A DNA stretch of 35,130 nt from a virus. Its lineage: Duplodnaviria; Heunggongvirae; Uroviricota; Caudoviricetes. A program made the position numbers. The stretch lies in IMG/VR virus record IMGVR_UViG_2740892229_000022. The stretch is one strand, 5' to 3'. Positions 27,001 through 30,000 of this stretch are shown here, in pieces; the first letter of the stretch is position 1, and each line of letters starts with the position of its first letter.

Positions 27001-30000
27001 CAGCGTGCGGACTTCCCATGTATTTAACGAGCCCAGGGTAATAAGCAACCGGATGCCCAAAATCGAGCAGAAGATCAGACGGACGCATAGCCACCTCCCA
27101 GGCGCTTAAACATTTTCCCGGACTGAAAAGCCACCAGCGGATAACTCAGGGTATGAGTACGTCCCTGAACCTGGCAGACAACCTTCTGGCTTTCTGTATT
27201 GACCAGGCAAACCCGCAGAACGTGACCGTTGCTGGTGGCGAACCACTGCCCCACACGGGGGCAACGGTTGTATCGGTGATACAGGGAATTAACGATGTAG
27301 CGGATCATGGACGCACCTCCGCCGTAGTTACGTATTTAACCGGGCTACCTTTCATTGAGATGGTTTCACACATCTCTGCCGCTTTCAGTTCCGCCGTTTT
27401 TCTGGATTTATAGCGACGGTGCCAGACAGATACATCCGTGCGAACTGATACATCGTTTCTGTATTCCGTAGTGGAGATGATGATTTCGTAACTAATCATG
27501 GGCGTACCTCCCATTGATTACGGCGAAAAGCAGTGTGATTCAGGCTGGTTTCAGCCTCATGGAATGCTTCAATGCAGCTCTCGTAGTACCGCATTGTGCG
27601 TAGACTTAACCCAAGCTGAAGCATCATCAGGCCATCAAGGGTGATGTAATAACCACGCAGGGAGTCACCATAGATGTGGTAAGTACCCGGTATGAAGTTG
27701 CGGGTAAAAAATTCGCGCGAGCAGTTCAGATACTCGATTTTGTCGACGATGTTCTGGTGCATGCGCTTAAAGTGGCAGGCAACATGCAGGGAGAAAATAA
27801 CAGCTTTGCCGTTGACGACTTCGATTTTGAGGAATGGGGAAGTTGGGACTGTAGCCATGATGGCAGCCTCCTTGATCGGTGAAAAACTTCCACCACCGGA
27901 GCTGCGAAACTCATGGGTGGTGAACTGAACAGGGTTCGCAGTACCGGCGATCAAGGAAACCGGCGAGCCTTTCGGCTCCCCTGCCCAGCCCACCATAATT
28001 CTGGCGTGCGTGAGCGCAGACGATAAAAAAGACGCTGGCGCGTCGTATATCGCCTTGATCAATTCCGGGCTGCGACCCCCGGCACCCGCTTTATAAGGTG
28101 CAGAGACAGTGTAACGTCCCGAAATTGCAGAATCAATATTTGGTCTTGAAATGATCATATAGCTGCTGATATCTTTAGAACTGTTCTTGGATGTTTCGGA
28201 GCCGTTTTATGCGAAACAGCTCCCCGTTATTGATGTTGAGTGAGCCGGGTTACTCCCGGCTTTTTTTCACCGCTGCCAACCAATAACCTGAAATAACCCC
28301 ATTTTCGGGTGATACCAGCGAGTCCCTCGCGGTTCTGCTTCCTCCATAACCCGATAAAAAGCAGCCATAAAAGGTTCCACGGCAACAATTGCGCGACGTG
28401 ACAACAATCCGTCCGGCGTCATGAACTCATGGGTGTCTGTAGGAATTTGATAATCGTTCACCAGATTGCGGCATTTCGCATCTGACATACCTGTTTTCGC
28501 CACCAGCTGACGGTATCCTGCATAACCATCGCGTATGGTGCCTCTTTTGATTTGTTCGACAGTTTCGGCAACGTGGCTAACTTTTTCTTCCATCTTGTCG
28601 AGGCGTTTTTGCTGACGAACTGCTTCAAGAGCCATCGCGGCAACCATTTCGATTTCGCTCATTGGTTTGCGCACCTGCTCTTCCAGTTCGCGCCAACGAT
28701 CTACCAGGCGAGCAGTGAATTCAGGACAGAGCTGTGCGACGACAATGATACTGTCGCGCTTACCTTGTTCTCCTTCAAACAGGTAATGCTCATATTGAAC
28801 TTTAAAACCTAAGTTATTGATTTTCTCGGAAACAGCCATTGGCGGTTTCCGGATGATGTTTTTAGCAACCAGGCGTTCGATACTACGTTTAACATCTGAG
28901 TGCTGACTACCCACCAGCTCTGCGATCTCAACGCTGGTCATGGATGCTTTATCGTTAAAAATTGCGGTGTTCACTGTTTATCTCCTTCGCACACTCCATC
29001 TTCTGTGTGCGCTAAGCTTGGGTGTGGGAAAAGTTTTGGCTTATCTGGCCTAAGCTCATGAGCGGGAATCCCTGTTACGGCAGAAACGTCTGGAACATGC
29101 TCCACCCCTACAAGTCCAATCTTTCTCCATCGGGAAACAGATGGCTGTTTGACCCCAACGGCGCGAGCTAATGCATTTACGCCCCCTGCAATATCTATTG
29201 CTTTCTCAATCGCTGATTTCATAAAACACACCTAACAATTGCTTTTTCTATCAAAAAATAATAGCAACACCTATTCCACCATGCAATAGACACACTTATA
29301 GAACGCATCTACAATGTAATAGCGGAGGCTATATTTATGTCGAAATCACAAATGAGCATGTTGAGAACCCTTGCAGATAGGCTCAACTTTGCAATGTACG
29401 AAATGGGAATGAGCCAAGCTCAGTTGGCTAAGGCAGCAAACATGGCTCAACCGACCATTTGGCGAATAGCATCGGGGAATGCAAGAGGAACAACGAAAAT
29501 TGTCGATCTCGCTAATGCTCTCGGTGTTACACCGGAATGGTTAAGTTCTGGTGTAGGTTCTATGAGGGCAGAGAACAAGAAACCATCTATTCCACCAAAA
29601 TCCGAATGGGGGAAGATAGAGTCGTGGGATGAGCACACGCCTCTAAGTGATGATGAGGTTGAAGTCCCTTTTCTTAAAGATATTGAGTTTGCGTGTGGTA
29701 CTGGGAAAGTGATTAGCGAAGATCATAATGGATTAAAACTTAGGTTTTCAAAAGCTACCCTTCGTCGGATCGGCGCAAACTCTGACGGAAGTGGAGTGCT
29801 ATGTTTTCCGGCGACTGGTAACAGTATGGAGCCTATAATCCCTGATGGAACGACCGTAGCTATTGACACCAACAACAAAAGAATTGTCGATGGTAAGTTG
29901 TATGCTATTGGACAAGATGATGGTTGTGGCGGACAACTAAAGCGCATTAAACAACTACACAGAAGACCAGGTGGAAAATTGATTATCCGCAGTTACAACA

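Follow-up and report, generated by a model that had tools for sequence, protein, structure and literature searches.

Plus-strand terminators inside minus-strand operons of a phiP27-like Shiga-toxin phage: an EcOnc08/21/42-type RNA and a predicted OOP-like unit

What is the role of a terminator that points against the genes around it? The question is raised by two GC-rich hairpins in IMG/VR record IMGVR_UViG_2740892229_000022, a stretch of 35,130 nucleotides (nt) from a member of the Caudoviricetes, here called the window, which is assigned to a phiP27-like Shiga-toxin (Stx) phage. Each hairpin is followed by a run of T on the plus strand and each sits inside a block of minus-strand genes: element 1 (28243-28267) at the end of a gene for a Rha-like protein in the early control region, and element 2 (18635-18664) beyond the Shiga-toxin genes. 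The balance of evidence leans slightly towards a common explanation, in which both hairpins act as Rho-independent terminators, each closing a small RNA gene on the plus strand that is lodged in a minus-strand operon. Element 2 would then belong to the EcOnc08/EcOnc21/EcOnc42 RNA known from Escherichia coli O157 Sakai, and element 1 to a unit resembling OOP of phage lambda.

Two one-directional hairpins

The stem of element 1 is formed by AGCCGGG (28243-28249) and CCCGGCT (28255-28261) around the loop TTACT, and runs into a T7 tract at 28261-28267. In element 2, GCCCGCG (18635-18641) and CGCGGGC (18650-18656) enclose a loop of 8 nt and are followed by T8 at 18657-18664. Hairpin energies are -15.3 kcal/mol at site 1 and -16.9 kcal/mol at site 2, with z = -4.3 and z = -4.0, respectively, against shuffled sequences. 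Under a strict terminator rule (a perfect stem of at least 7 base pairs (bp) with at least five G-C pairs, a loop of 3-9 nt, then at least seven T) the two sites are the only matches on either strand of the window; 500 dinucleotide-preserving shuffles gave a mean of 0.006 strict sites, and none reached two. Both hairpins are real and far from chance, and the original prediction of two plus-oriented terminators with 7-bp GC stems inside minus-strand operons holds at both positions.

No T-run follows either hairpin on the minus strand, so that both are one-directional, facing plus-strand transcription only. The general form of an intrinsic terminator, a GC-rich stem of 5-14 bp with a loop of 3-8 nt and an immediate U-rich tract on the transcribed strand, is seen at both (stems of 7-8 bp with six to seven G-C pairs, loops of 5-8 nt, T7 and T8). 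The two hairpins are predicted to act as Rho-independent terminators of plus-strand transcription. Element 1 had been thought to end 2 nt before the stop codon of the Rha-like gene; the last T of its T7 is instead the third base of the TGA (28267-28269) that closes this minus-strand open reading frame (ORF) of 235 amino acids.

Element 2 and the EcOnc08/21/42 RNAs

Element 2 is the end of an RNA that has already been published, though it is left unannotated. By sequence identity, 18498-18664 on the plus strand is an Hfq-bound RNA of the EcOnc08/EcOnc21 type, part of which is homologous to two Hfq-CRAC peaks of Sakai. Positions 18589-18661 match EcOnc08, from Sakai prophage Sp4, at 71 of 73 bases (97.3%), and positions 18498-18576 match EcOnc21 at 93.7% over 79 nt, each on the corresponding strand. 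The EcOnc08 peak in Sakai ends within the T-run of the terminator. EcOnc08, EcOnc21 and EcOnc42 are homologues detected by Northern blot at about 271 nt in E. coli O157 Sakai (Tree et al. 2014, PMC4104026, Table S2); they bind Hfq in that strain and are classed as Hfq-bound prophage small RNAs in convergent pairs (PMC4104026). By the coordinates of the same Table S2 (PMC4104026), EcOnc42 lies in Sp15 on the strand opposite stx1, a little way beyond it.

The flanks of element 2 likewise match Sp4, where an STnc100-like RNA (EcOnc05) and the esterase gene are found. In the window, STnc100 RNA (18665-18879, minus strand; Rfam RF02076, 159 bits) lies downstream of stxB and meets element 2 tail to tail, one stopping at 18665 and the other at 18664, 3' of the cargo genes. 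Element 2 thus resembles EcOnc08/21/42 in its strand, in its convergence with an STnc100-like RNA and in its place between cargo genes and esterase gene; it differs in lying downstream of an stx operon in a phiP27-like phage, whereas EcOnc08 lies in Sp4 of Sakai. The RNA at element 2 can be regarded as a local copy of EcOnc08/21/42, effectively proven in the near-identical Sakai locus. The idea that the terminators mark plus-strand small RNAs is borne out at this site, while at element 1 it stands as a predicted unit.

Two lengths are conceivable. With its end at 18664, a 271-nt form would have its start near 18394, within the sialate esterase gene (minus strand, from 18443 downwards), and would run antisense across the esterase leader, the start and the first 50 nt or so of the gene. 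A form of about 70 nt could also be made from a conserved promoter-like motif, TTGCGC (18559-18564), 18 nt, TATTAT (18583-18588), directly ahead of the EcOnc08 peak. The RNA would be transcribed towards the end of STnc100. On the minus strand, a terminator-like hairpin (CTGCGCAACTGCGCGG then CCTTTTTCG) is seen at 18551-18566, between STnc100 and the esterase gene; it falls inside the EcOnc21-homologous stretch and overlaps the -35 hexamer of the candidate short-form promoter.

AsxR has been described as lying "282 bp 3' and antisense to stx2AB", in one of the convergent small-RNA pairs found between PR' cargo genes and a conserved phage ORF (PMC4104026). Element 2 shares with AsxR and AgvB this slot and the convergent layout 3' of the PR' cargo site, and ends 290 bp from stxB. 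Rfam places AsxR in exactly the slot of element 2 in a homologous E. coli locus (L010), tail to tail with STnc100, and the AsxR/EcOnc27 pair of Sakai Sp5 has the same convergent layout as element 2 and STnc100. The RNAs themselves differ: AsxR and AgvB have a conserved 3' region of about 42 nt (GTATCTCATGC..TTGCCCGAACCCAYTCGGGC) that is absent from element 2, and measure 51-60 nt against about 73 to 271 nt. Membership of element 2 in these two families (RF02703 and RF02702) was rejected, with no Rfam match at E <= 10 and only the T-tail aligning. The Pas small RNAs of enteropathogenic E. coli were also rejected; they lie in the structural operon or between esterase and holin genes, and are at neither site.

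The toxin genes stxA (19235-20194) and stxB (18954-19223) are on the minus strand. Directly upstream of stxA are three tRNA genes (20285-20536, minus strand), an arrangement typical of Stx phages; two are Arg-TCT and one has the anticodon CAT, called Met by ARAGORN and ileZ in the Sakai annotation. Eight runs of exactly 10 N occur in the window (at 8790, 11636, 12833, 13060, 13356, 14627, 17471 and 18253). The esterase gene is interrupted by two of them and for this reason shows up as two ORFs (17418-18443 and 16177-17469).

Element 1, a predicted unit of the early region

Between the stop codon of the Rha-like gene and the promoter of the small RNA isrK is a spacer of 108 nt. Within it a candidate plus-strand promoter, P+ (28146-28175), faces the terminator of element 1, with -35 TTGAAA (28146-28151), an 18-nt spacer and the extended -10 TGATATCTT (28167-28175). 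The whole window has two TGn sites of this quality, and the probability of finding one by chance in the plus strand at 28102-28242 (141 nt) is 0.018. Promoter and terminator together predict a small plus-strand RNA of about 86 nt (28180-28267), with a start that would fall at 28180-28183 and a folding energy of -28 kcal/mol (z = -3.2). Its body contains a possible seed, the block GTTCTTGGAT (28183-28192), and a middle hairpin, GGAGC...GCUCC (28198-28223). The predicted RNA would be shaped like many Hfq-binding small RNAs, having a single-stranded conserved 5' end (GUUCUUGGAU), a hairpin in the middle, and a GC stem that ends in U7. At the predicted start lies a perfect inverted repeat, AGAAC-T-GTTCT (28178-28188, plus strand), which is found in one allele only, A1, and could be a protein-binding site or chance.

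The unit is conserved. A survey covered 80 viral contigs that code for proteins closely related to the Rha-like one, and then 87 viral contigs from IMG/VR and 33 metagenome contigs found by pattern. About three-quarters of the first set have the element 1 hairpin with a T-run of 6-8. The spacer occurs as three alleles (A1, A2 and A3) whose bodies are only about half identical, and across all three the motif TTGAAA-18-TGnTATyTT is kept in 85 of 86 contigs and the GTTCTTGGAT 10-mer, the sole block of the RNA body common to them, in 85 of 87. Each allele then has a middle hairpin, swapped for one of different sequence at the same place in A2 and A3, followed by GTTGAGYGAGCCGGG..CCCGGC and the T-run. 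Further alleles were sought in a metagenome scan, which returned the same three only. Among 5,426 complete E. coli genomes 284 have the module, with O157, O26, O111 and O145 strains among them; in O111:H- 11128 (NC_013364.1, 2433038-2433225) the 189-bp interval shows 100% identity. Across 185,579 species genomes (one per species) its pattern gave chance Bacillus matches only and no enterobacterial match. A generic stem pattern, tried on viral contigs, mostly returned unrelated terminators and was dropped.

The variants bear on the strand of action. Across the 87 viral contigs and the 33 from metagenomes, a single substitution, C to T, is seen in the terminator stem, and its G-U pair survives only in plus-strand RNA; the stem is otherwise invariant. 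A single variant of the hairpin found at this place in phiP27-type phages likewise keeps G-U pairing only on the plus strand, as do two variants of the A2 middle hairpin, so that all four substitutions in the terminator stems (class A and phiP27 type) and the A2 middle hairpin are G-U pairs on the plus strand alone. The T-run measures 6-8 in every copy, a constancy that would make sense only for plus-strand termination. RNAalifold, applied to 14 module sequences, misregistered the unequal loops and gave a meaningless consensus structure.

The organization recalls that of lambda. The early operon of the window opens on the minus strand with a cro-like gene (28971-29231), followed in the cII position by the 235-amino-acid Rha/Roi-type gene (28267-28974), whose stop codon overlaps the T-run of element 1; replication genes come next on the same strand, and the gene for a cI-like repressor (29337-30083) is on the plus strand. 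Like OOP, the predicted RNA would run against the pR operon from a promoter with an extended -10 just beyond the gene in the cII position. It would be similarly short (about 86 nt, against 77 nt for OOP) and would end at a strong intrinsic terminator at the 3' end of that gene, ahead of the replication genes. The same scan applied to lambda recovered pO (TTGAGT, 17 nt, TGTCATAAT; nine of twelve with TG), with a score equal to that of P+, and the oop terminator, at a comparable spacing.

There are also differences. OOP extends over some 55 nt of cII coding sequence, but element 1 reaches only the last base of the stop codon. The upstream gene is of the Rha/Roi type here and CII in lambda, and an isrK-C4 cassette stands here between the Rha/Roi-type gene and the replication genes. 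There is no sequence homology: blastn-short found no similarity of element 1 to AsxR, AgvB, EcOnc03 or EcOnc08, nor to oop beyond 7-8 nt of the terminator tail. The comparison with OOP that had been drawn for this site thus survives in position, orientation, promoter type and size, and fails in the overlap with the cII-type gene. On these grounds element 1 would be like OOP in position and architecture without being a member of the OOP family.

Scans of element 1 with Rfam 15, both at gathering thresholds and permissively, found only terminator look-alikes, the best being sroD, which scored 24.5 bits where 50 are required. Inspection by eye showed neither a LexA box nor a small ORF shared by the three alleles, and an operator shared with the cI-cro region was rejected, the only repeats being short and due to chance.

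From the arrangement of promoter-like site and terminator we infer that P+ fires, where the RNA begins and how it might act. RNA polymerase would start at P+ and be halted where the Rha-like gene has its stop codon. Transcripts that read through from pR just 3' of this gene would be fully complementary to the RNA and would pair with it. Head-on transcription from P+ against pR would add to the effect, and P+ would compete with the isrK promoter, with which it lies back to back. The outcome would be less early transcription reaching the antirepressor cassette and the replication genes, and the terminator would keep plus-strand transcription from going antisense through rha and cro into cI. An RNA antisense to the leader of a downstream "220-aa gene", as originally proposed, does not fit these positions. 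The predicted RNA at 28180-28267 lies upstream of the isrK start at 28101 and would be antisense only to pR read-through in the spacer.

The surroundings of element 1 and rival readings

The "220-aa gene" (27496-28158, minus strand), annotated "ash family protein", contains two RNA genes. The first is isrK (28025-28101, minus strand; Rfam RF01394, 57.6 bits), with a1 at 28075-28070 and b1 at 28060-28053, an assignment that agrees with a weak match to the Rfam c4-a1b1 family. Its promoter (28108-28136) has the -35 TTGATT (28136-28131), a 17-nt spacer and the -10 TACACT (28113-28108), and predicts a start at 28101, exactly where the Rfam model begins; its -35 hexamer is 9 bp from that of P+. The second is a C4-type antisense RNA (27913-28000, minus strand; Rfam RF01695, 85 bits), with a' at 27941-27935 and the loop b' at 27956-27948. 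Beyond them is the true ORF of 120 amino acids with a Rha domain (27496-27858, minus strand), which starts at ATG 27858 behind the Shine-Dalgarno sequence AAGGAGG (27873-27867). This Shine-Dalgarno sequence falls within the b2 target (27878-27870); the other target, a2, occupies 27909-27902.

Only the last 120 codons of the "220-aa gene" appear to be coding, because the excess of differences at codon position 3 is confined to the part downstream of 27858. In pairwise comparison of homologues, position 3 holds 68% of the differences there and 32% in the upstream 100 codons; a first version of the test, not made pairwise, was swamped by non-homologous alleles. The ATG at 28158 has no Shine-Dalgarno sequence, and the first 100 codons, which had been counted as part of a gene, have no coding signature; they comprise the isrK and C4 RNA genes with their own promoter. 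Pfam assigns residues 16-107, which correspond to the RNA genes and their target, to Phage_ASH and residues 123-203 to the Rha domain, and the Phage_ASH "domain" looks at this locus like the RNA genes isrK and C4 read as protein (27859-28158).

The cassette at 27866-28101 (minus strand) would be an RNA switch like P1 immI, as in c4-icd-ant of P1 and P7 and isrK-orf45-anrP of Gifsy-1, with a1/b1 in isrK, a'/b' in C4, and the a2/b2 targets further downstream, b2 over the Shine-Dalgarno sequence. All copies of a site are swapped jointly between alleles (CTGCGAA/TTCGCAG against GTTCCAA/TTGGAAC in alignment A1), a co-variation that would be expected for immunity specificity. Element 1 differs in standing upstream of the cassette on the other strand, and no counterpart to it was found described in P1 or Gifsy-1. 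In the P1-like phage D6 a gene that lies beyond icd carries the annotation ant (locus L213, 1483-2190), and its product is 73.5% identical to that of the Rha/Roi-type gene in the cII position. The latter may therefore itself encode an antirepressor, with a second Rha-domain gene under RNA control behind it. A 62-amino-acid ORF (27726-27914, minus strand) starts at the last bases of C4, with the a2 site just past its ATG, and overlaps the start of the 120-amino-acid ORF in a different frame. Its counterpart may be orf45 of Gifsy-1, which works through translational coupling.

The interval between the Rha-like stop codon and the isrK promoter varies among relatives (L286-L289, L067 and L027). 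It holds the small-RNA-like module, a BRO-N antirepressor gene, a DUF4222 gene, or DUF4222 with a RelE/ParE-HTH pair on the opposite strand; relatives that carry DUF4222 without this pair have no terminator there. The slot appears to take up cargo and to accept self-contained units on the plus strand. Where element 1 and the upstream TTGAAA are both missing, the isrK promoter is still present, so the conserved TTGAAA is assigned to the module and not to isrK. Over the 1.9 kb around site 1 the window shows 100% identity with both Escherichia phage ASU11 and a prophage of E. coli 2013C-4991; phage phiP27 is a relative. In phiP27-type phages, which have the BRO-N gene between the Rha-like gene and isrK, an unrelated hairpin, GGCCGG/CCGGCC with TTTCTTATTT, has the same place and orientation as element 1. 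In phiP27 itself (L003, 3447-3538), TTGATT-18-TGATATTGT lies in the first codons of the BRO-N ant gene L15, aimed at the reverse terminator after L14. It is predicted that an RNA of about 55 nt would start there at the ant start codon and cover the L15 Shine-Dalgarno sequence, in the manner of sar; the codons that contain the motif are AT-rich, and coding alone may account for it.

The sar RNA of P22 is antisense to the ribosome-binding site of ant. It is described in one account as a small RNA against the antirepressor operon that ends at an intrinsic terminator between two genes (PMC12197685). Element 1 differs from it, as 28180-28267 holds no ribosome-binding site or supported start, and the sar-like feature is a prediction for phiP27-type loci only.

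Several observations weigh against element 1 as an OOP-like RNA gene. The predicted RNA would overlap no coding sequence or ribosome-binding site and has no obvious cleavage target of the OOP kind; nor is there, within the window, a complement of GTTCTTGGAT with at most one mismatch. P+ matches the promoter consensus at nine of twelve positions with a suboptimal 18-nt spacer, and the 5' end assigned to the RNA may be wrong, because the element 2 RNA of Sakai is longer than its nearest promoter predicts. No paper on element 1 was found in the literature on RNAs next to Rha/Roi, isrK or phiP27, and no Rfam family describes it. With three alleles the covariation is anecdotal, and the variant counts are too small to decide the strand. 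Moreover, the bases of the middle hairpin form a continuous 10-bp stem on the minus strand, stronger than on the plus, and the A1 variants G28198A and G28201A keep G-U pairing on the minus strand only. These last features would suit hairpins acting in the minus-strand pR transcript, as a 3'-end stabilizer or processing site for the cro-rha mRNA or as a two-hairpin element in cis, with the A/T-run incidental. Such a role is quite unlikely: the run is retained at 6-8 in every copy and is relevant to plus-strand termination alone, both terminator-stem variants disrupt the minus-strand pairing, and an alternative plus-strand fold, as the sequence is read, would place the commoner A1 variant in a loop.

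Other rivals accept the direction of the terminator. It might serve as an insulator only, a one-way block to stray plus-strand transcription into rha, cro and cI, with a functionless transcript. The hairpin is one-directional and stands exactly at the module boundary, phiP27-type phages keep a terminator of different sequence there, and the neighbouring slot can hold plus-strand cargo such as the RelE/HTH module; yet this account, possible though unlikely, leaves unexplained the promoter-like site and the 10-nt block conserved amid a diverging spacer, and class C phages lack any terminator at that place. The free exchange of cargo in the slot (BRO-N ant, DUF4222, a toxin-antitoxin pair) would also allow a relic in decay: a plus-strand cargo gene would have been lost, and its promoter and terminator would stay behind without a function. 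Broken copies would then be expected, whereas promoter, 10-mer, hairpin and terminator with a T-run of at least 6 are retained in three diverged alleles, about 120 contigs and 284 E. coli genomes, and a relic is very improbable. The original prediction of an RNA antisense to the leader can also be read as a longer plus-strand RNA coming from further left, antisense across C4 and isrK and ending at 28267. The Sakai RNA of about 271 nt, which far exceeds its nearest-promoter prediction, and the lack of a plus-strand terminator between 27900 and 28240 speak for it. No plus-strand promoter-like site reaches nine of twelve between 26802 and 28146, however, and the conserved one is at 28146-28175, so that the longer RNA is held to be quite improbable. 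A trans-acting, Hfq-dependent small RNA is also unlikely. Its 5' block GUUCUUGGAU would pair, as a seed, with targets in the host or the phage, or serve as a decoy for a small RNA of the host in the way of AsxR and AgvB. Fired back to back with the isrK promoter, the RNA would add a third RNA layer to the antirepressor switch; if so, it would influence the lysis-lysogeny decision and toxin release in Stx phages.

Element 1 read as an OOP-like gene is thus a credible, undescribed small-RNA unit of a familiar kind, as predicted from its sequence. The gain is modest, since small antisense RNAs in phage early regions are well known and current understanding is unchallenged. For annotation, one "terminator" becomes a published but unannotated Hfq-bound RNA, and the widely propagated call of an "ash family protein" is doubtful at this locus. 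In these Shiga-toxin phages the module lies within the early control region. If its RNA were to tune early transcription or the neighbouring antirepressor cassette, prophage induction could change, and toxin production with it.

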